Below, piece by piece: positions 4,428-18,003 of a stretch of 27,034 bases of DNA. Position 1 is the stretch's first letter, and the number at the start of each line of letters is the position of its first letter. Below the pieces are notes generated by a model that did no database searches, was not told the DNA's origin, and saw nothing but the letters and a program-made list of their open reading frames with translations. The DNA comes from Candidatus Sigynarchaeum calidifontis (GTDB lineage: Archaea > Asgardarchaeota > Lokiarchaeia > Sigyniarchaeales > Sigyniarchaeaceae). The position numbers and the translations under genes were made by a program. The stretch lies in assembly GCA_030587475.2 (NCBI GenBank), contig JAUQYZ020000263.1, positions 1 to 27,034 of the forward strand, written 5' to 3'.

Positions 4428-5369
4428 TCATGGGATCAAGGGGGCAATGAGCGAGATGTTGAGCACGAGGAAGATCGTTCCGACGGCGAGCGGTAGAAGC
4501 ATGAGCACCATGCCGTATACCGATTTTTGCAGCTGGCTCCTCCACCGGGTCGCAGCATAGAACAAGACGGCCAGCCCGATCGATATTGCCAGCGGGACGA
4601 GCGAGGCCAACGCGAGCTCGCCCTTGTTCCCGAACCGGTCGGGTGTCCCGCCGAGGTCATAGTGAAGCGGCACGATCTCGGGAAGCCACGGGAACACGAC
4701 GACCATGTAGGTGATGCTGATGCCGGCTTCGATGAGGACGGCGACGAAGAGCGCGGTGGTCAAGACCTGGTGCTTGCGAGCCATCGATTCCGGCCCCGCG
4801 AGGCGCTGCGTGTTGTCGAATTGCTTTTCGGCAATGCTACCGATTCGCTGCTTCACGGTCGCGATGAATTCCTCCGGCGCCGCGGGCGTGATCCCGTAAT
4901 ACTTGCCCGCCGAGGTGACGATGATGACCAGGTTTGCCATCCTCGTGGCGACCAGCTTGATCGGCCTGTAGGAACCGTCGATCAGCAGCCGGAATGCCCC
5001 GTACAAGTGATCGGGGATGCCCACCCCGGCCGTCCTGATACCATCGAAGGCGGTGCTACTTGGCCGGCCGACACTCGCTATCTCGTTAAGTGGAATCACC
5101 ATCTTGAAGAAACCCCACCGCAGCACCAGGAGATCCCTCGAAACAATATATGCCATCTTGAAATAGCCATGAATCACGACAGAGAACAGCGCGGAAATGC
5201 CACCAACGAGGACGAAGGAGAATGATGTCAAGATCATATCCGATGTCATGAGCACGACGGGGATAAAGACCGCGGAGAGGGTGCCCACGATCACGATGCC
5301 GAGGGCAACGCTCCAACAACCACCTTTCGACGGGGCCGGTCGAAACGAGCGGGCTTCGTCTGGCTGCAT
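4428..5369 (-). CDS. Membrane protein: 2 TM + bacterial PH-like domain + DUF1648 (SdpI N-terminal-like) domain
   Basis: LPEIVPLHYDLGGTPDRFGNK is the DUF1648 signature. LVLRWGFFKMVIPLNEI...GIRTAGVGIPDHLYGAF...YGITP is typical of membrane-associated bacterial PH domains. About 5 hydrophobic helices. Confidence 0.8.
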   Translation of the reverse strand: MQPDEARSFRPAPSKGGCWSVALGIVIVGTLSAVFIPVVLMTSDMILTSFSFVLVGGISALFSVVIHGYFKMAYIVSRDLLVLRWGFFKMVIPLNEIASVGRPSSTAFDGIRTAGVGIPDHLYGAFRLLIDGSYRPIKLVATRMANLVIIVTSAGKYYGITPAAPEEFIATVKQRIGSIAEKQFDNTQRLAGPESMARKHQVLTTALFVAVLIEAGISITYMVVVFPWLPEIVPLHYDLGGTPDRFGNKGELALASLVPLAISIGLAVLFYAATRWRSQLQKSVYGMVLMLLPLAVGTIFLVLNISLIAPLIP

Positions 5370-9105: not shown

Positions 9106-9159
9106 TTTCATCTTCAAGGGCTGCGAGTTCGCCTGGAACATCGGATCGATGAATTAGCT
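9106..9159 (-). repeat. Diverged duplicate of the last ~18 codons of the TrmB-like coiled-coil gene
   Basis: Reads S*FIDPMFQANSQPLKMK versus SQFIGPMFQANSQPLKI* at 9338-9391; 42/54 nt identical by manual alignment. Confidence 0.9.
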
Positions 9160-9195
9160 ATCAAATGATTTTAACCTGGATTGATAAATACTTGC

Positions 9196-9337: not shown

Positions 9338-11899
9338 TTAAATCTTGAGGGGCTGGCTGTTGGCCTGGAACATTGGACCGATGAACTGGCTGTAGAGCTT
9401 GGCATAGCCCTCCTGGTCGCTGATGACGCACACCAGGTCGTTGTCCTTGGCCGTCTCGGGCGCCAGCATGATCTCCTCGGCGTCGCGGGTCACCGCCCAG
9501 TACTCGCCGGCCGTCTTGAGCTGCCGGAACTGGACGTTGCCGAGCACGCTCATCTTCTTGATTATGTCGCCATAAGAGGCAAGGTCCCAATGTGTGGTTA
9601 GGAAAAACTTTTGTGCCTTGCGCTCGTACGCCACTTGTGCTATCAATTCCAAGATTTCGGGCACGACCGTCGGCGTCACGATGATGATCGACGATTTCGT
9701 GCGCCAAATCACGTCCTTCAAGTAGGTAATCAACCCCGCCTTCCCGATCAAGTGCCACGTCCTGATCGGCTCGATCGGCCGCACCGCGTGTGCAGCGTTG
9801 TGGATCTCGGTCAGTTTTTCCTCGGTTTTCTCGGCGCTGGAGAACGCGTCGTCGATCTTGTTCATGAACGTGAGCGTGAAGTCGGCGATCGAGTCCTTTA
9901 TTTTCTGGATGGTCTCGTCGACGGTCGCCTTGTTCGCGCCCTCCATCTTGCCCGACACGTCCTTGAACCGGTCCTTGTGGTCGTCGAGCATGGCCAGCAA
10001 GTTGGAATTCATTTCCTTGCACTCGGACTTGAACAGGCCGATTTGCTCGTCGATCAGGTTCGACGCCTTGGTCTTCGTGGCGTCCTTGTCGTTCAAGATC
10101 TTCGTGAGGCGGCTCTTGTAGATCTGGGCTTGCTTGGCCTTCATGTCGTCGGTATCGGCCTTGAAGATGTTCGCGTGCTCGGTGTGCTGCGCCGTCGCAT
10201 CGGCGTGGAAGTCCGTGACGACCTTTTTCTTCTTGGCGATGTCGGCGGATATTGATGCCTTCTCGGCGGCCGTGTCGTCGTTGAATTTCTTGCGGAACGC
10301 GTCGTTGAACGAGAGCACGCCGTTCCGGTGGTTGTTGAGCGCCGTGTTGAAGTTACCCTGGTGCGCGTTGAACGACGACTCGACCGACGTCTTCAGTTTC
10401 GCCGTCGTGTCGTGGCAGTGCTGAATGTTCGTCTGCATGGTCTTCAAGGTCTCGGCCGACAAGTTCGACGCCAGCCCTTCCAGCTCGGCGTTCACGGTCT
10501 CCTGCGCGAACTTGTCCAGCTCGCCCGATTCTTTCTTGAGTCCCTCGTTCTCTTTCTTGAGAATCCCGAGCACCTCGGTATCGAGCGCCTGCGTCATGGC
10601 GTTCGTCTCGCCGATGTAGTCCTTGGTCTCCGAGTCGAACTGCGTCTTGATGTCCACCCCCAGCGCCGCGACCCGCTCCTTGACCGCCTTGTAGACCTCG
10701 GCCCAGTGTTTGTGCTGGCCGGAGAACAGCGCCTTGAACGCGCTGCCACGGCTGCCGAGGAACTTGGACACGTCTTGCAGTTGTCCCGAAATGTCGACGA
10801 GATTATCGATGAGCAGCTTGGTCTTGTACTCGAAATCCTCGACCTTCTTGACATAGGCGGCTTGCTTCGTGTCCAGCGTGCTCGTGACCTGCTTGCCCAT
10901 GGCATCGGTCGTGTTGTTGAGGTGGGCGTTGTGCTTGGCGAGGATGTCCGAGATGCGTTTCTTGAGGTCCTCCACGACCGCGTTCATGCGGTCGAGATAT
11001 TTCTGGAGGATCTCGTCCATCCGGGGCTTGAGGCCCTCGGCGTGCTGCTTGTGGCTGTCCACGTGCGCGTCCATCTGGGTCTTGACTTCCCTGTCCAGCG
11101 TCTTGAGCCGCGTGTCGAAATCCTTGAGCAAGTCATCGATGAGCTTGTTGATCTCGTTCTTGGCCTTGCTCGTGTGGTCGCCGGCCTGGTTGTTGAGCGC
11201 GTCGGTCGTGGCGTGCAAGCTCTTCTCCAGGTTCGTCGAATCTGCCAGCAACTGGTCGCGGATCGCGGTGAGCTTGTCGTTGAGGGCCTTGTTGTCGCCC
11301 GTGAATTTCGTGCTATGGGCGGTCCACTTGGCCGAGATCTCGCTCTCGAGTTCCGCGCTGTCCGCCTTGAACGTGTCGAAGTTCTTGTCCAGCGTGGCGT
11401 GGATCTCCAGCTCCATCTTCTTGGATGTCTCCTCGAACCGGTCGCGTGCCTTCGTGATCGTGGCGGTGGCGACCGTGCCCTGGTCGTTCGCGTCGGCGTT
11501 GAACTGGGCCTGCTGGTCGGCGACGGTCTTCTCGATATCGGCCTTGGCTTTCGAGGCAATGCCATCCAGCTCGTCGTATTTCTTGCTCTGGTCCGCGAGC
11601 ACGTTGTCCTTGATGACAGAGATCTCGTCGCGGAACTTCTTGCTCTGCCCTGTAAACAAGCTAAAGTAAGGCTCGAGTGGGATGTACCGTTCGATTTTCC
11701 CCTCGATTTTTTTAAGGAACTTGGCCTGTTCAAGTTTTTCGGTTATCTTTTTGACCGTGTCGTAGTCCATCTCCAGCAAGGACATGATTTGACTCACGGT
11801 TGCTTGCGGCATTCCAAGATAACCGATATAGACCTTGACCTCGTTCTCCAGGAGGCCATATTGTGTAAATATATCCATAAATACTTCTTTTAACGACAT
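9338..11899 (-). CDS. TrmB-like protein: N-terminal winged HTH, ~630-aa hendecad coiled coil, C-terminal degenerate PLD-like/TrmB effector domain
   Basis: YGLLENEVKVYIGYL...ATVSQI...KLEQAKFLKKIEGKIERYIPLEP is a TrmB-type wHTH. TWHLIGKAGLITYLKDVIWRTKSSIIIVTP...YWAVTRDAEEIMLAP resembles the TrmB C-terminal domain and has no HKD motif. Start 11899 preferred; 11998 and 11878 are alternatives. Confidence 0.85.
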   Translation of the reverse strand: MSLKEVFMDIFTQYGLLENEVKVYIGYLGMPQATVSQIMSLLEMDYDTVKKITEKLEQAKFLKKIEGKIERYIPLEPYFSLFTGQSKKFRDEISVIKDNVLADQSKKYDELDGIASKAKADIEKTVADQQAQFNADANDQGTVATATITKARDRFEETSKKMELEIHATLDKNFDTFKADSAELESEISAKWTAHSTKFTGDNKALNDKLTAIRDQLLADSTNLEKSLHATTDALNNQAGDHTSKAKNEINKLIDDLLKDFDTRLKTLDREVKTQMDAHVDSHKQHAEGLKPRMDEILQKYLDRMNAVVEDLKKRISDILAKHNAHLNNTTDAMGKQVTSTLDTKQAAYVKKVEDFEYKTKLLIDNLVDISGQLQDVSKFLGSRGSAFKALFSGQHKHWAEVYKAVKERVAALGVDIKTQFDSETKDYIGETNAMTQALDTEVLGILKKENEGLKKESGELDKFAQETVNAELEGLASNLSAETLKTMQTNIQHCHDTTAKLKTSVESSFNAHQGNFNTALNNHRNGVLSFNDAFRKKFNDDTAAEKASISADIAKKKKVVTDFHADATAQHTEHANIFKADTDDMKAKQAQIYKSRLTKILNDKDATKTKASNLIDEQIGLFKSECKEMNSNLLAMLDDHKDRFKDVSGKMEGANKATVDETIQKIKDSIADFTLTFMNKIDDAFSSAEKTEEKLTEIHNAAHAVRPIEPIRTWHLIGKAGLITYLKDVIWRTKSSIIIVTPTVVPEILELIAQVAYERKAQKFFLTTHWDLASYGDIIKKMSVLGNVQFRQLKTAGEYWAVTRDAEEIMLAPETAKDNDLVCVISDQEGYAKLYSQFIGPMFQANSQPLKI

Positions 11900-12264
11900 A
11901 TCATGCACCTTTGTATCGTTATTCGATGTAACAGCAAATCCTTCGTCGATCGTCCCGCCCTCGCGTGTTTCCCTTGAGACAAAAGGCGGGTCCGGCATCG
12001 GCGAAAATCTATCGTATTGTTCAATGTGTTGGTTTTAAGCATTAAAAAAGTCTTCACCCGGCCGATTTCACGGCATCGATGCAATGTTGCGGCATGGGGC
12101 ATAGTTGCGCATGATCCGACTACAAGGTGGGATGGCCCATCATGCGAGAACGCGAGCACGAGTACCTTTTCGAGGCACGTGCGAGCTTTTTTTTTCATGG
12201 TGTTTCGATCCCTTTCGTGGCCGAATCGTTAACAATACCAATTGAACTGGAAGGGACGAGAAAA

Positions 12265-12294: not shown

Positions 12295-12595
12295 ATGCAA
12301 TCGACTAGCCACCGACCGTACCTAGATAGCTCCTTCAATTGCTTGGCGCGCGTGCGAGAGAAACAAGGTGGAAGCCTGTTGAGCCCTTCCACCCTTTTAT
12401 ACTTTATCCTTTTTCCTTTAATGCACGTAAAAGCCACCACGTTACTATCTCAAGGTACAAGAACGTCTATAACATGGAGATCGTCGATTTCGTTAAATAT
12501 AACCCATCATTCGCTAGCCTGGCAATCGTCGTGATGCCCAAGCCATGCTTTTTCCTCGGTGCGGTCATCGTCACGGATCAGATACGTCAAAAAAA

Positions 12596-12743
12596 GGTTG
12601 GCATGGTGGTTGGTGAGGTGAAACCCTTTCCATCTCGTAAACCGCTCGGAAGCGCATCGCGCAAGCCGTTGGATAAAGGTTGGGCTCGACCCGAAAAGGC
12701 CACCCGACATCGCGACGATTGTCGACCACGAACACGCCGTTCT
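12596..12743 (+). ncRNA. Candidate structured RNA upstream of IS110 transposase remnant (possible bridge/seek RNA)
   Basis: Manual pairing: 12600-12616 with 12719-12738 forms a long closing stem (several G-U pairs, one 3-nt bulge). Internal stems CCUUUCCA/UGGAUAAAGG, CGCU-CGGA-AGCG, GC-GCAA-GC, UUGGG/CCCGA, AUCG-CGA-CGAU. Confidence 0.35.
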
Positions 12744-12749
12744 CTCTCT

Positions 12750-13298
12750 CTGCTCACGCCGTTCTCCGCCGCATGGCTCGTCTCCGAGGTTGGACCGGTG
12801 TCGCGCTATCCGACACATCGAAAGTTCTCGGCATATTGCGGTTGCGGCGAGCGCGTGGTAAAGTCTGCAGGAAAGACCTATTCCGCCCATGTTTTGCGCC
12901 GGTCAAATAAATACGCTCGGACGATCTTGTTTAATGCAGCACGCGTGCTTTGCTACGCCGTGAAGAAGGATTCCGCGCTAAAGCGATATAGCAAGCGGAT
13001 GTTCGCAAAGAAGGGACACAAGGGGCCGGTGCTTGTATATTGCACGATCGCGACGAAATTATCCCGCATCATCTATGCGATGCTTAGGGATGGTGTCGAG
13101 TTCGACCCAACAATGGCCGCGGATAATCGACGTCCAGCGAGTATCGGCAACACCTTGCTTACCATCACCGATAGAAAGCGCATACTACACGCGCAAAAAG
13201 CGCTGCAGCGCGTCGCAAAACTCAAGCATCTCGGGCTTTTATCGGATCGAGCGGCATGTTTCGCGGAAGGGCTCGAACGAGCATTAAAAGAAAATTAA
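12750..13298 (+). mobile_element. IS110-family transposase remnant (C-terminal Transposase_20/Tnp domain only; RuvC-like DEDD domain missing)
   Basis: LTPFSAAWLVSEVGPVSRYPTHRKFSAYCG...VVKSAGK...SNKYARTILFNAA...IATKLSRIIYAMLRDGVEFDP. I could not find a GxD-type DEDD N-terminus upstream. Confidence 0.88.
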
Positions 13299-14513: not shown

Positions 14514-15434
14514 TCATCCGACCACGCTGATCTCGACCTTCTCGACATTCTCGAGCAACTCGAGCCCGGCCTTCACGCGGGCGATCGTTTCTTCGATATT
14601 GGCAGCCACGGCAAAATACGCCTCATAAGAACACTTGCCTGCCTTCTCCTGGCAGATGCCCGACGTGAACAGCAGCGGCAGCTCGATCACGCGTGCCGTG
14701 CGCATGATGAACTCGGGCGTGAGCGCCTTGACGATGATGCGCACCTTGATGGCCTGGCCGCTGCACGGGATCAGGTCGGCCTTCATCATGTCCCCGACCT
14801 TGCGGAAGACCGTGAACGCCCGCGACGCGGCCTTGCCCCTGGCGAGATCCTTGAGCTCGTTCAGGGCAGAGCGGGGGATAGGCACTTGCTCGGCCGACGC
14901 GATTGCCGCGATGGGTAACATGCTGGCGTACGTCGTGGGCGTGACGATGCGCAACTGGTCATTCAAGGCATCCAGCATGCCCGCTAGCTTGTTGTACTTC
15001 GCCGCGATGAGGCCATCGAGCTGGGCCGGGTCGATCGCCTTCCCCTCGGGGGTCGTGAAGAACGTGGCGGGGATGTATTCCTTCCGGTTGCCCGTGTAAA
15101 ACGCCATGTAGATGTCCGGGTCGCTGGCAAGCTGTTCCTTGAAATCGAGCATGCTCCGCTTGAACACGTCGATGGCCGGGGTTTCCTCCATCGTGAAGAC
15201 GGACAGCTGTGCCATCTCGACTTGTCCCCTGGCCCATTTCGAAGCAATGTTCAAGGGCATGTTGATGCTCTTGACCCCTTCTTCGGGGTCATCCTTGATG
15301 AAGAACTCGTCATCTTGAACGAAGTCCATGAGTTTAATGGTCTTTCTTACGATTTTCTCGTTGAAATTCCGTGGTATGACCATGAACGAGATGGGTCCCA
15401 ACCGGGTGTCGAAAATCGCGAGAAGCACGGCCAT
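14514..15434 (-). CDS. Longin/uDENN (FLCN/SMCR8/NPRL2-like) domain fused to a C-terminal ACT-like domain
   Basis: VLLAIFDTRLGPISFMVIP (F-x4-GP first hairpin) and NIASKWARGQVEMAQLSVF (ARG loop). C-terminal ~78 aa follow a beta-alpha-beta-beta-alpha-beta pattern ending LELLENVEKVEI. Alternative start 15476. Confidence 0.75.
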   Translation of the reverse strand: MAVLLAIFDTRLGPISFMVIPRNFNEKIVRKTIKLMDFVQDDEFFIKDDPEEGVKSINMPLNIASKWARGQVEMAQLSVFTMEETPAIDVFKRSMLDFKEQLASDPDIYMAFYTGNRKEYIPATFFTTPEGKAIDPAQLDGLIAAKYNKLAGMLDALNDQLRIVTPTTYASMLPIAAIASAEQVPIPRSALNELKDLARGKAASRAFTVFRKVGDMMKADLIPCSGQAIKVRIIVKALTPEFIMRTARVIELPLLFTSGICQEKAGKCSYEAYFAVAANIEETIARVKAGLELLENVEKVEISVVG

Positions 15435-15657
15435 AATATCATCATACCGCAGTGTTTTCAAAAGGTTTGCATGCAAGCAAATTGCCGTATTGGGTTAATA
15501 ATTGGCAGAAAAGGCAGCTGTTCGCGGGTCATTCCGTTTAAATTATCTCCGACGCTATTGGTAATGATTAGATCGTCATCATCGCTCTTGATCATCAGAG
15601 CATCCGTTCGGCGTCCCGGCGACATTACCCAAAAAAAAAGAAAGGCGCGAAAAAACC

Positions 15658-16866
15658 TTGGATCAATTCGTGGAGAAAAGTTTTGACAAGGACTTGCGTT
15701 CTTTGTTCAAAAAGGACGTGCACGTGGATAACAAGTCATTGCATAAAGTGCTCGATCTCCCGGTTGACAAGCTCCAGGGTATCGATCTCGTTTCCAAGGA
15801 CAAGCTCGAGGAAGCGGGCATCAAGACGATCTATGACTTGAGCCAAGCGGCAGCGAGCGAGAAGAAAATCACGATCGATTCCACGATCCTTCGGAAATGG
15901 ATACGCAAGGCCAAGATCATCGTCAATTACGTGCAGAACCCGCTCACGAAGAAAAAACTCGTGCTCGCGGGGTTGGATTTCGCTGGAAAGACCAGCTTGC
16001 TGTCCGTCTTGAAAAAAGATTATTCTGTCATACAAGACTTGATGCCGACCAAGGGTGCACAGCGCGATGGCGTTGAATTCTTCGGGATTCCGATCATCAC
16101 GTGGGATCTTGGCGGGCAGGCACTGTACCGCAACGAATACCTCGATTCTGGCAAGTCAAAGCTCTTTTTCAGCGACACCGACGTGCTCTTCTACGTCATC
16201 GACGTTCAAGATGAAAAACGATACGACGAGGCACTCGACTACTATGGCAAGATGCTCGCGTCCTACAAGAATCTAGGCGAGCGGCCATCGCTCATCGTCC
16301 TCTTCCACAAGCTCGATCCCCAGATCAAGGAACAAGAGCACGTGATGCAGCGCATCGCTAAATTGCAAGTTGACATCGCCAACGTCTCGACAGAGCACGA
16401 GTTTTCGCCTGTCTTCGCCAACACGTCGATCTACGACAAGAACTCGGTATTCGTGGCGTTCTCGCTCGGCATCCGCAACATCTCGCAAACGGCCGAGCTC
16501 GTGGCATCGCTGCTCGAGGAATACACGGTCAAGGCCAACGGCAAGGCGGCCGTGCTGTTGTCGTCCGAGGGCGAGGTCTTCGCGCAGACCGGCGTCACGA
16601 AGGAATACATCGAACTCGTCACGCAGAACGGCTTGCTCATAGACACGCTTGTCAAGTTCGATATCACGAAGGGGTTCAAGTTGGAAAAAAATCCCGTGCT
16701 CAAGTTTTCCGACAACGAGATGTACCTCATTGGCCATCACATCTCGTCCCAAATGGGCCGTACGGTGTATCTCTGGCTGCTGCTCCAGAACCTGATCGAC
16801 TTCACGAGCTCGCTTTCATTCTTCCGGAACGAGGTCGAGCCGTTGTTGAACTTGTTCATCATCTAA
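15658..16866 (+). CDS. Rag/Gtr-like (Arf-related) small GTPase with N-terminal HhH-like domain and C-terminal roadblock-like domain
   Basis: G1 GLDFAGKTS, G2 PTKG, G3 WDLGGQ, FYVID, G4 HKLD, G5 TSIYD. N-terminal LPVDKLQGID...KLEEAGIKTIYDL. C-terminal LLEEYTVKANGKAAVLLSSEGEVFAQ. Start is TTG 15658 or GTG 15670. Confidence 0.88.
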   Translation: MDQFVEKSFDKDLRSLFKKDVHVDNKSLHKVLDLPVDKLQGIDLVSKDKLEEAGIKTIYDLSQAAASEKKITIDSTILRKWIRKAKIIVNYVQNPLTKKKLVLAGLDFAGKTSLLSVLKKDYSVIQDLMPTKGAQRDGVEFFGIPIITWDLGGQALYRNEYLDSGKSKLFFSDTDVLFYVIDVQDEKRYDEALDYYGKMLASYKNLGERPSLIVLFHKLDPQIKEQEHVMQRIAKLQVDIANVSTEHEFSPVFANTSIYDKNSVFVAFSLGIRNISQTAELVASLLEEYTVKANGKAAVLLSSEGEVFAQTGVTKEYIELVTQNGLLIDTLVKFDITKGFKLEKNPVLKFSDNEMYLIGHHISSQMGRTVYLWLLLQNLIDFTSSLSFFRNEVEPLLNLFII

Positions 16867-16888: not shown

Positions 16889-17647
16889 TTAGCAATCTCG
16901 CACCAGTGCGCACGATGGATTGCGCGCCGCTTCCGAGATGGCCTCCTCGACCATGTACACGATGCGGGCAACGACCGTCCACGCGTCGAGGGGGATGGGG
17001 GCTATCGAATGCAGGTTTCCAGGCGGAACGATAGACTGCCATGCTCCATCGAAGTGGCCCCCTTGAAATCCGCCGATGACCAGCGCAAAGTCAACATTGG
17101 CATCGATACATCCGCTGCCGATGCTCGACAAGACATCATCGAAGGACCGCAGCTTGCCTTTGGTCGAGAACGCGTGGATCCGCGAAGCATCGAATCGAGA
17201 CAGGAAATTGGCGAGCGTGGTTTCCTGGATGGTGAATAGCTGCGGGCCATCCGTTGCCGCGGGCTGTTTCTTGTCCGAGAGCAGTTCGCCCATGATACCC
17301 TCGAACCGGTTGAGTGAGCGGGGGATCCTAGTTGCTGGGTCGATTATAATGATGCGTTCCTTCGGATAGATCACGTGGACGCAGACGCGTAGCTTTTTAA
17401 AAAGCAAGTTAAGTGGCGTATTCATCGCGGCCAATAAACAGAAGTGCACGATGTCCGGTCGCCCGCGCTTCTCGGCGCCAGCCAGCGACGCCATGGCCGA
17501 GTGATGGTAGTTCGTGTCAAGTAACAGCTTACCGGCTCGCGTGCCCTTCCGCTTCACGTCGGCGAGGACGCTCGCGTGTTCCCGGAGGGCTTCGGGGACG
17601 AGCTCCAGCGCCGCTTCCGCGATGACGAGCCAGATCATTTTTATCAT
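16889..17647 (-). CDS. nep1: 16S rRNA pseudouridine N1-methyltransferase Nep1/Emg1 (SPOUT)
   Basis: LVIAEAALELVP, LLDTNYHHSAM, KRGRPDIVHFCLL, TRIPRSLNRFEG, VIGGFQGGHF. ATG 17647 overlaps the rnp4 stop (ATGA). Confidence 0.95.
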   Translation of the reverse strand: MIKMIWLVIAEAALELVPEALREHASVLADVKRKGTRAGKLLLDTNYHHSAMASLAGAEKRGRPDIVHFCLLAAMNTPLNLLFKKLRVCVHVIYPKERIIIIDPATRIPRSLNRFEGIMGELLSDKKQPAATDGPQLFTIQETTLANFLSRFDASRIHAFSTKGKLRSFDDVLSSIGSGCIDANVDFALVIGGFQGGHFDGAWQSIVPPGNLHSIAPIPLDAWTVVARIVYMVEEAISEAARNPSCALVRDC

Positions 17648-18003
17648 CCCTCCAGGAAGCCTGGCCGTGGTCGCTTGTAGTGATACCGCTTGACATTCCC
17701 GCACTGCAGGCATGTCACGACGACATGCGCGTTTTTTCCTTTGCCTTGCAATCGCACGCGTGCCGTGGTTCCTTCGAGCAAGAATGCGTTGCATTTTTTA
17801 CAAATTTTTCTCGTGGCTTGTGGATCGAGCGGCATTCGAACTTTCATTGCGATCTTTCGAGCAATGTGGACATACCGGTTAGCCATGGCAGGGCCGTTCC
17901 CCGGCATGGATACGGCCTTCTCCGCCGCTGCCATGAGGATATCGACGCGCTCGCGGGCGATCTGGCCGGCTTTCTGCTTGTTCTTGATGTATTTCTTTGT
18001 CAC
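17644..18003 (-). CDS. rnp4: Ribonuclease P protein component 4 (Rpp21)
   Basis: IARERVDIL, ANRYVHIARKIAMK, CKKCNAFL, VTCLQCGNVKRY. Confidence 0.95.
   Translation of the reverse strand: MTKKYIKNKQKAGQIARERVDILMAAAEKAVSMPGNGPAMANRYVHIARKIAMKVRMPLDPQATRKICKKCNAFLLEGTTARVRLQGKGKNAHVVVTCLQCGNVKRYHYKRPRPGFLEG

Follow-up and report, generated by a model that had tools for sequence, protein, structure and literature searches.

A TrmB-headed Asgard archaeal protein with a predicted antiparallel hendecad hairpin in place of the linker helix

TrmB, the sugar-sensing regulator of Pyrococcus and Thermococcus (PDB 3qph and 2f5t), and its relatives are the closest described systems for the protein reported here. 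In ordinary TrmB, one short amphipathic coiled-coil helix (alpha5) lies between the DNA-binding and effector domains, and the sugar-binding residues of the C-subdomain include Asn305, Gly320 and Glu326 (PMC4158304). Tyr50 and Asp/Glu51 of the recognition helix are the DNA-reading residues of functional TrmB, TrmBL1 and TrmBL2 (PMC4158304, Table 1), and thiol-based regulators exist in the TrmB family (PMC9426492). TrmBL2 (TK0471/PF0496; PDB 5box, 5bpd, 5bpi and 5bqt) is a chromatin protein of the Thermococcales. The protein described here has the same order of parts as TrmBL2, namely a TrmB-type winged helix-turn-helix (wHTH), a helical part and a PLD-like C-terminal domain that lacks the sugar-binding subdomain, and TrmBL2 is also its best Foldseek match (E 2.5e-8). 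However, TrmBL2, at 264 aa, has a single linker helix, whereas this protein has a predicted 630-aa hairpin with a tip and a knuckle, no detectable sequence similarity to TrmBL2 outside the wHTH, and no conserved equivalent of Tyr50. With TrmB it shares the wHTH profile and the effector N-subdomain, but the C-subdomain, Tyr50/Asp51 and an adjacent sugar operon are absent and the linker is about 20 times longer.

The rod also invites comparison with other long helical proteins. Like those of the SMC/Rad50/MukB type, it appears to be a long antiparallel intramolecular coiled coil with a head at one end, a special far tip and conserved arm lengths. However, it has neither a hinge domain nor a CxxC zinc hook, its apex being a two-residue turn with a cationic-aromatic patch; its repeat is hendecad and not mainly heptad; and its head is a TrmB wHTH with a PLD-like domain, and neither a Walker A pattern nor any Pfam or NCBIfam match to an SMC/Rad50 ABC-type ATPase was found in the protein. 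The MCP hairpin 2ch7 is likewise long, helical and conserved at its tip, but MCPs are heptad based and form four-helix bundles as dimers, whereas the rod protein has a single narrow seam and 11/3 periodicity. The 11/22-mers of apolipoproteins A-I, A-IV and E have the 11-residue amphipathic periodicity in common with it and give weak sequence matches; the rod protein differs in its narrow seam, its sub-threshold score and its two arms, whose pairing is shown by mirrored indels.

The gene was found in Candidatus Sigynarchaeum calidifontis (assembly GCA_030587475.2, contig JAUQYZ020000263.1), in the whole stretch of 27,034 nucleotides that was analysed, which is called the window below.

9338..11899, minus strand: rod-protein gene, likely extent, 853 aa, stop included
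12025..12055, minus strand: A/T-rich TATA-like element TTTTTTAATGCTTAAAA upstream of the rod gene, a putative promoter assigned by eye

The start at 11899 is likely because homologues of 846-853 aa begin with MSLKE and a GGTG lies 8 nt 5' of the ATG at this position. The open reading frame spans 9338..11998 on the minus strand (886 aa, P0001), and the longer form, starting from the ATG at 11998, is unlikely to be used. Residue numbers refer to the 886-aa frame; the numbering of the AF2 model starts from the 853-aa form. The initial annotation, made from the sequence, had placed a wHTH and a TrmB/PLD-like domain about 630 aa apart, separated by a stretch of 11-residue periodicity. The Pfam match, the periodicity and the fold match confirm that the protein consists of a wHTH, a helical rod of about 630 aa and a C-terminal PLD-like domain. 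The annotation's statement that ordinary TrmB has a short-helix linker agrees with PMC4158304; in the protein studied here that short alpha5 linker is absent, and about 630 residues in two antiparallel helices stand in its place.

10748..11668, minus strand: N arm, aa 111-417, about 28 hendecads with a single narrow hydrophobic seam
9788..10744, minus strand: C arm, aa 419-737, antiparallel to the N arm in the register i+j ~841

Within aa 121-740, hydrophobicity shows its strongest periodicity at 3.66 residues (11/3), where the power is 8.2, compared with only 0.57 at the heptad period of 3.5. In shuffled controls (n=2000) the maximum averaged 0.75 (sd 0.23, top value 2.0), which places the observed peak about 30 sd above them, and the 11-mers quoted earlier were confirmed at aa 281-357. 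About 3 of 11 positions form the hydrophobic seam. At the others, hydrophobic residues make up <10% (in aa 254-410, the arm segment that is ordered best) and charged ones about 50%. A second hydrophobic seam for lateral packing was not found in the arms.

The proposal that this stretch folds back as an antiparallel hairpin of about 45 nm is strongly supported by the paired arm lengths, the mirrored indels and the midpoint break of the AF2 model. Three checks that the initial annotation had named for its proposal, on co-varying arm lengths, conservation of the tip and a model break at the midpoint, all came out in favour of the hairpin. Among 54 and later 129 distinct homologues, the lengths of the N and C arms co-vary with r = 0.999 over 10 length classes (N arm, 257-407 aa), and the difference between the C and N arms is constant at 18-22, a spread traced in the 54-sequence alignment to a 3-4-residue indel at the tip and never going beyond it. 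Arm-length changes are equal and mirror-placed in both arms, mostly multiples of 11 and fixed within each lineage. Nine separately placed indels each have a mirror partner of the same size, with centre sums of 836-849 (around residue ~420, i+j ~841), and conservation along one arm shows its highest correlation with that along the other at i+j = 840. The 323-aa mini-variant P0064, in which aa 156-692 are deleted, is a mirror deletion in its own right; it may be an assembly artefact, since its provenance is not on record. Its model is collinear with TrmBL2 over 245-250 of ~260 residues, but not as a rigid body (rmsd 27-33 A).

The AF2 model contains four long helices, with helical stretches at 111-416 and 419-737 and its sole sharp break at R417-G418 (384-385 in model numbering). 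Model residues 234-542 align with the chemoreceptor hairpin 2ch7 past the midpoint and across the tip (301 residues, Z 12.7, rmsd 9.5 A), a match that indicates architectural likeness only because its Z lies within the range common for long helices. Two further stretches of the model, aa 217-246 and 596-630, are unstructured at low confidence, the segments being missing from short homologues. These "elbows" are probably artefacts: they coincide with shallow alignment (occupancy 0.55-0.67), contain no helix breakers except G234, and the N-arm hendecad phase runs through aa 217-246. A two-copy complex prediction for the distal hairpin (aa 280-562, with its own alignment) scored 0.30 against a mark of 0.42, a result that speaks neither for nor against lateral or tip-to-tip pairing.

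10703..10765, minus strand: tip KFLGSRGSAFKALFSGQHKHW, aa 412-432, the R417-G418 turn and then SAFKALF-x-G-x-HK-x-W, midway along the helical region

The tip sits centrally between helices 111-416 and 419-737, as the initial annotation had placed it, and is conserved across the homologues. A near-invariant Arg-Gly turn marks the exact centre, where the hendecad phase also shifts. The net charge of the tip is +4.6 (range, +2 to +8), compared with -1 to -1.9 per 23 aa in the arms, and it contains 3.5 aromatic residues compared with 1.06 in the arms. F421, L424, F425 and W432 continue the core stripe of the C arm and may therefore simply cap the hairpin; the hydrophobic residues of the tip may then be buried instead of lying exposed as a membrane anchor.

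11024..11065, minus strand: N-arm half of the knuckle, H312, H316, G322 and invariant P325, from the family alignment
10406..10441, minus strand: C-arm half of the knuckle, T520, G/N524, [D/H]527, C528 and T531, facing H312/H316 by the indel-derived register

A near-invariant H-H-[D/H]-C quartet, in register between the arms, is new in this study. H312, H316, [D/H]527 and C528 occur together in 126 of the 129 sequences; in each of the other three, two or three of these residues are missing. P325 is invariant and G524 is common; both lie with the quartet, in register between the arms and about 100 residues from the tip. The quartet is a candidate metal-binding knuckle, with a geometry that comes from the register only.

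11669..11863, minus strand: TrmB-type wHTH, aa 46-110 (Pfam PF01978), ending in the invariant R-Y-I-P-L-E-P
9341..9787, minus strand: C-terminal alpha/beta domain, aa 738-886, with the predicted fold of the TrmB/TrmBL2 PLD-like N-subdomain

For the C-terminal domain of the AF2 model, the best fold match is the effector N-subdomain of TrmB 2f5t (residues 110-243; Z 17.5, rmsd 2.1 A over 132 residues), followed by 3qph (Z 16.9) and TrmBL2 5bpi (Z 15.0, rmsd 2.7 A), and PLD-superfamily proteins match at Z 11-15. The model thus contains the TrmB effector N-subdomain, an eight-stranded PLD-like sheet with flanking helices. This link is one of predicted fold only, since neither Pfam at E<=10 nor the family profile against PDB sequences gave a useful match. 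The catalytic HxK(x)4D motif (HKD) of the phospholipase D/Nuc superfamily is absent across the whole protein. As in TrmBL2, the chain stops where the N-subdomain stops (model residue 853 aligns with residue 243 of the 2f5t chain), and the sugar-binding C-subdomain beta-barrel with Asn305, Gly320, Met321, Val324, Ile325 and Glu326 is absent.

The wHTH matches PF01978 with 31.7 bits in the whole protein and 36.6 bits as a domain alone, above the GA cut-off of 25.6, and its predicted fold resembles 3r0a (Z 10.8) and AbfR2 (Z 10.6). Its profile aligns without gaps to residues 9-83 of TrmB 3qph at E 0.012, and because this alignment is weak, the placing of Tyr50 is only moderately secure. By this alignment, Tyr50/Asp51 of TrmB correspond to K83/K84 here, and in the 129-homologue family the corresponding columns are mostly L/K/E and E, so that the DNA-recognition Tyr50 (and Asp/Glu51) is not conserved; the recognition helix is acidic in most members. 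The domain is not basic (K+R 11, D+E 12), and the wing retains the invariant R104. DNA binding by the wHTH is thus doubtful on the residues present.

The rod family is near-universal in its order, being found at E<=1e-20 in 69 of the 76 genomes sampled, in most of them as one gene, and the rod gene is monocistronic. All named members of the superfamily are Asgard proteins, of 323-1794 aa with spacers of 83-1539 aa, and the longest paralogues reach about 770 residues per arm. No neighbour is shared across the family, as judged from three long contigs and from eleven ORFs of the window that were compared with 83 loci by tblastn, and no sugar operon adjoins the rod gene. The only neighbour links, to a longin-like gene and to Rag-like GTPases, are limited to clades. 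The guess that the family may be catalogued under an SMC-like misannotation finds no support in the names given at source, namely "hypothetical protein", "helix-turn-helix domain-containing protein", "sugar-specific transcriptional regulator TrmB" and "YukE". NCBIfam gave sub-threshold noise only (hemerythrin domain, 17 bits against 51.75), the PDB sequence search with the whole protein returned only weak apolipoprotein matches, and no description of a TrmB-headed long coiled coil of this kind was found in the searchable literature.

We suggest, with about an even chance of being right, that the protein is a derivative of TrmB/TrmBL2 in which the single dimerisation helix has been replaced by an antiparallel hendecad hairpin, and that it acts as a fixed-length strut or tether rather than as a ligand-sensing operon regulator. 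The helix would have become two helices of about 306 and 319 residues with an 11-residue repeat, and these would lie antiparallel, held by a single narrow hydrophobic seam, as a two-helix rod about 45 nm long. The model and the register place both globular domains, wHTH and PLD-like, at the same end of this rod as a putative head, and the conserved Arg-Gly turn with its cationic, aromatic patch at the far end as the tip. The head would hold nucleic acid or another head, the tip would hold a second anionic partner, most plausibly a membrane, and the H-H-[D/H]-C cluster beside the invariant proline would clamp or gate the arms, probably through a bound metal ion. A family that is near-universal, mostly single-copy, monocistronic and free of constant neighbours does not behave as a local regulator. 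A tether between DNA and membrane, as proposed initially, is put forward here as a hypothesis only.

Another reading, which we consider unlikely, is that the protein is a working DNA-binder of the TrmB/TrmBL2 type, a transcription factor or chromatin protein, and that the rod is a long-range sensor or an oligomerisation device, for example relaying a metal or redox signal from the knuckle to the head in the manner of a chemoreceptor hairpin. The above-threshold wHTH, TrmB and TrmBL2 as the nearest structures, the Lys-Lys of this clade at Tyr50/Asp51 with the invariant R104 in the wing, and the conserved Cys/His cluster, considering that thiol-based TrmB-family regulators are known (PMC9426492), are consistent with it. 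However, most family members carry L/E at the recognition positions, on an acidic recognition helix, and no conserved target operon lies beside the gene. A sensor also does not explain matched arms of 257-407 residues here or spacers of 83-1539 aa in the superfamily, and the one narrow seam speaks against a chemoreceptor-like four-helix bundle.

Mirror-symmetric, equal indels would also be required if the chain did not fold back and two extended chains of about 630 helical residues formed an antiparallel rod about 90 nm long. This would be a domain-swapped version of the hairpin, each end carrying the wHTH of one chain next to the C-terminal domain of its partner. For the TrmB dimer itself, a domain swap around the linker helix has been described (PMC4158304). 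This arrangement has little chance of being correct, as the nearly invariant Arg-Gly turn and the hendecad phase shift lie at the exact centre, the AF2 monomer breaks its helix there and aligns across the tip with 2ch7, and a cationic-aromatic patch midway along a continuous rod would serve no obvious purpose as a turn. A cytoskeleton-like polymer subunit, whose heads and tips drive end-to-end or lateral assembly as a counterpart to FilP/Scy, the hendecad-rich intermediate-filament-like proteins of bacteria, seems similarly improbable: the rod is long, conserved, mostly encoded by a single gene and has two conserved ends, and TrmBL2-type C-terminal domains reportedly oligomerise (in the literature on PDB 5bpd), but the arms offer no second hydrophobic seam for lateral packing. 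Amphipathic 11-mers lying flat on lipid, as in apolipoproteins, perilipins or LEA proteins, would make the whole rod a membrane element, which we regard as highly improbable because, although the 11/3 periodicity is common to those proteins and there are weak matches to Pfam Apolipoprotein A1/A4/E (PF01442, 34.2 bits) and to ApoA-I/A-IV in the PDB (E 0.002-0.02), the score is far under the PF01442 cut-off of 90, the ~3/11 stripe is flanked by positions that are ~50% charged and net acidic, and surface helices need no exactly mirrored indels in two arms.

The strut or tether can be taken one step further, to a metal-stapled molecular ruler of Asgard cells with its tip on the inner face of the membrane and its head on chromatin or on the head of a second rod, an extension that we hold to be quite unlikely as it stands. 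If true, cargo would sit about 45 nm off the membrane, or two facing membranes would be spaced by about 90 nm, which is in the size range of the thin membrane protrusions seen in cultured Asgard archaea. The 11-residue steps in arm length would then set the distance for each lineage, and the longer paralogues would set larger ones.

Among known prokaryotes, the Asgard archaea are the nearest relatives of eukaryotes, and to our knowledge little has been learned of how the inside of their cells is organised. Rods of constant length whose two sticky ends differ, such as SMC arms, kinetochore rods and golgins, allow cells to measure and hold distances. An ATPase-less, TrmB-headed rod for holding distance is not described in the searchable literature. 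Since the mirrored indels give the register i+j ~841, a residue-level structural model is obtained without experiment, and this register singles out one specific question, that of metal binding by the His/His/Asp-or-His/Cys knuckle. An orthologue of 963 aa, for which a rod of 54 nm would be expected, is present in the cultured Promethearchaeum syntrophicum MK-D1 (NZ_CP042905.2, about 3.186 Mb), which makes localisation and pull-downs feasible, and whole-cell proteomes of Asgard archaea have been announced (bioRxiv 10.64898/2026.07.02.735847). In this superfamily a transcription-factor scaffold has apparently been converted to rods, the two arms staying matched to the residue in proteins of 323-1794 aa.

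The rod protein of Candidatus Sigynarchaeum calidifontis is derived from TrmB or TrmBL2, and its linker forms an antiparallel rod of two hendecad helices, the length of which is fixed within each lineage; the protein has a composite head (the wHTH plus the C-terminal PLD-like domain) and a cationic-aromatic tip. What the initial annotation had read from the sequence (the wHTH, the 11-mers, the midpoint break and the TrmB/PLD-like C-terminal domain) was confirmed in every part. The sole long ORF of the region is 9338..11998 (-), and its 886-aa translation (P0001) provides the residue numbering used here. Because full-length homologues (846-853 aa) start with MSLKE and AAGGTG stands eight bases 5' of the ATG at 11899, the gene is likely 9338-11899 (853 aa), as originally proposed. 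A T/A-rich TATA-like element lies farther upstream of this ATG, an oligo-T-rich stretch follows the stop, and the gene is monocistronic. A relic copy of its last ~15 codons was found at 9106-9160 (-), ~180-230 nt 3' of the gene's own stop. Where the gene ends in FIGPMFQANSQPLKI-stop, the relic has FIDPMFQANSQPLKMK, and it closes much like the mini-variant P0064 (C-terminus ...MPLKM). The relic suggests that the 3' end of the gene was replaced by recombination in the past.

The N-terminal wHTH (aa 46-110) matches Pfam PF01978 (TrmB) with 31.7 bits in the whole protein and 36.6 bits as a domain alone (cut-off 25.6), and the family wHTH profile aligns without gaps to residues 9-83 of TrmB (3qph; E 0.012). 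The conserved Y79 corresponds to Tyr46 of TrmB, and Tyr50/Asp51, the DNA-reading residues of TrmB (PMC4158304), fall on K83/K84. Because these two columns read L/K/E and E in most homologues and the wHTH is not basic overall, we regard DNA binding by the head as doubtful, but possible in this Lys-Lys clade. The last 150 residues had no match among sequence families. In the AF2 model, 132 residues of the C-terminal domain superpose with an rmsd of 2.1 A on the TrmB effector N-subdomain (2f5t; Z 17.5); TrmBL2 follows with Z 15.0 and an rmsd of 2.7 A, and PLD-superfamily proteins with Z 11-14. The motifs HxK(x)4D, Walker A and CxxC are all absent from the rod protein. Since the chain ends with the PLD-like subdomain, the sugar-binding subdomain is missing, as in TrmBL2, whereas TrmB has it.

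Between the two domains, the strongly hydrophobic residues of aa 121-740 recur most strongly every 3.66 residues (11/3), with a power of 8.2, compared with a mean maximum of 0.75 (sd 0.23) and a highest value of 2.0 in 2000 shuffles; the power at the heptad period of 3.5 is 0.57. The 11-mers first quoted sit at aa 281-357. Hydrophobic positions make up ~3/11 across 129 homologues, and within aa 254-410, where the arm is best ordered, the remaining positions are <10% hydrophobic and about half charged, a pattern that describes a single narrow hydrophobic seam along the predicted rod.

The strongest evidence for a hairpin is comparative. Arm lengths were measured in 54 aligned homologues with the tip Gly as common boundary, the N arm beginning at the invariant PLEP and the C arm ending at the invariant Trp in the C-terminal domain. 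The pairs of N- and C-arm lengths were (257,275-279), (297,315-319), (301,323), (308,330), (319,341), (341,359-363) and (363,385), with r = 0.999; the residual spread is a 3-4-residue tip indel (RGSAFKALF versus KKG----FFW). The arm-length symmetry held in a larger set of 129 distinct sequences, 76 of them from genome contigs, with 10 N-arm classes of 257 to 407 residues and a C-N difference always of 18-22. The arm indels are equal in size and mirror-placed, with sums of centres of 836-849:

Mirrored arm indels (residue positions and size)
368-378 with 464-474, 11 residues
insertions at 273 and 567, 11 residues
at 191 and 652, 22 or 44 residues
222-239 with 599-616, 18 residues
232-242 with 597-607, 11 residues
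194-204 with 634-644, 11 residues
219-240 with 598-619, 22 residues
at 239 and 598, 22 residues
192-253 with 583-644, 62 residues

These indels set the two arms in antiparallel register about residue 420, with i+j ~841. Conservation gives an independent measure: the N-arm profile and the mirrored C-arm profile correlate most strongly at i+j = 840 (r 0.39) and 844. Two extended chains paired antiparallel in a domain-swapped form would fit the indels equally well; however, the near-invariant Arg-Gly turn at the centre, the hendecad phase shift at this turn and the AF2 model make such a pair less likely than the hairpin. The model (mean pLDDT 77.8; ~83 for the C-terminal domain) has helices at 111-216, 247-416, 419-595 and 631-737, with its sole sharp break at R417-G418, and the chemoreceptor hairpin 2ch7 aligns with residues 234-542 over 301 residues; the model thus folds back at the tip, as had been predicted. 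An arm of ~306 residues at ~0.15 nm per residue gives the expected ~45 nm. The unstructured, low-confidence stretches 217-246 and 596-630 coincide with segments that short homologues lack and that the alignment covers thinly; they contain no helix breaker except G234, and the N-arm hendecad phase runs on through 217-246. We read them as artefacts.

A close relative, the 323-aa P0064, lacks aa 156-692 through one mirror-symmetric deletion that removes the rod; it represents a natural mini-rod or else a collapsed assembly. Its model (pLDDT 84, pTM 0.58) is collinear with TrmBL2 over ~250 residues and not rigidly superposable (rmsd 27-33 A).

The turn lies within the following break:

10703-10765 (-), tip break KFLGSRGSAFKALFSGQHKHW, aa 412-432

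Conservation in the tip window is 0.77, above the ~0.5-0.65 of flanking arm windows. Family members carry a mean net charge of +4.6 over aa 411-433 (range +2 to +8), whereas stretches of 23 arm residues average -1 to -1.9, and aromatic residues number 3.5 in the tip versus 1.06. Because of this charge and aromatic excess, the composition fits a binder of an anionic surface, either membrane or nucleic acid. F421, L424, F425 and W432, however, extend the C arm's core stripe and may partly be a hairpin cap.

The rod has more near-invariant polar residues (H262, H312, H316, H356, H359, C528, H546, H557 and H674) than is usual for a coiled coil. The register deduced from the indels places H312 and H316, which are separated by one helical turn, opposite [D/H]527-C528, and H356/H359 opposite the near-invariant E483/N484. 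The H-H-[D/H]-C quartet, ~100 residues (15 nm) from the tip, is kept in 126 of 129 sequences, the three exceptions each lacking two or three of its residues; it is flanked by G322 and an invariant Pro (LKP325) on the N arm and by T520, G/N524 and T531 on the C arm. From register rather than geometry, we infer that this knuckle is a candidate metal site between the arms or, failing that, a specialised joint.

All named homologues are from Asgard archaea (Promethearchaeota/Lokiarchaeota, 'Sigynarchaeota' and bins labelled Thor-, Hod- and Hermodarchaeota), save one contig binned as Bathyarchaeota. Profile search found the gene in 69 of 76 genomes of the order, this genome included (62/68 and 6/7 in two of its families); the several matches per genome appear to come from segments of a single gene. 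Other Asgard families gave weaker matches, and a 963-aa orthologue is present in the cultured Promethearchaeum syntrophicum MK-D1. A profile of just the C-terminal domain recovered 261 cluster representatives, ~50 of which carry both domains (323-1794 aa; named ones Hel-, Loki-, Atabey- and Borrarchaeal) with spacers of 83-1539 residues, mostly of 3.62-3.69 periodicity, clearest in the longer ones. The window's genome has a second, more distant member, P0062 (883 aa; contig C63, L002 28-2679 (-)). An extra N-terminal domain of ~95 aa precedes its wHTH (PF01978, 21 bits); the helical part spans ~390 aa and shows the 3.62 periodicity more weakly, and the PLD-like domain, which matches the family profile at E 1e-6, is followed by a C-terminal extension rich in Pro and Ala.

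No neighbour conserved across the family was found among the homologous loci. Longin-like or Rag/Gtr1-like genes accompany the rod gene in 4-5 of 83 loci, a clade-limited link:

14514-15476 (-), window, longin-like
15658-16866 (+), window, Rag/Gtr1-like GTPase
L009 19-378, longin-like, ~100 nt upstream on the same strand (69%-identical orthologous locus)
L008 3-548, longin-like, 3.4 kb upstream
L006 10946-12103, Rag/Gtr1-like GTPase
L021 1322-2089, Rag/Gtr1-like GTPase

In the window, L006 and L021, the GTPase gene is found within 1-4 kb of the rod gene. An IS110/IS116/IS902-family transposase gene at 12339-13298 (+) (PF02371, E 8e-10) sits upstream of the window's rod gene, between it and the longin-like gene, and appears to have split an older arrangement. 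Neighbouring genes encode a GTPase of the Gtr1/RagA type at 15658-16866 (+) (PF04670, E 1e-25), an EMG1/NEP1 methyltransferase at 16889-17794 (-) (E 5e-41) and, at 4428-5369 (-), a protein with a bacterial PH domain (bPH_5 plus DUF1648).

Source annotations read 'hypothetical protein', 'HTH domain-containing protein' or 'TrmB', and none is SMC-like, contrary to an earlier guess; the literature searched gave no description of a TrmB-headed rod family. We class it as belonging to the TrmB family, with an SMC-like fold-back architecture, differing from SMC in its TrmB-family domains and lack of Walker A. Rival readings, besides the domain-swapped pair, are a DNA-binding regulator or chromatin protein that is still functional and uses the rod as sensor, apolipoprotein-like helices on a lipid surface, and a filament subunit. 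Rather than a sugar-sensing regulator, the rod protein would be a strut or tether between the partner of its head and that of its tip, and the knuckle may staple or gate the two arms.
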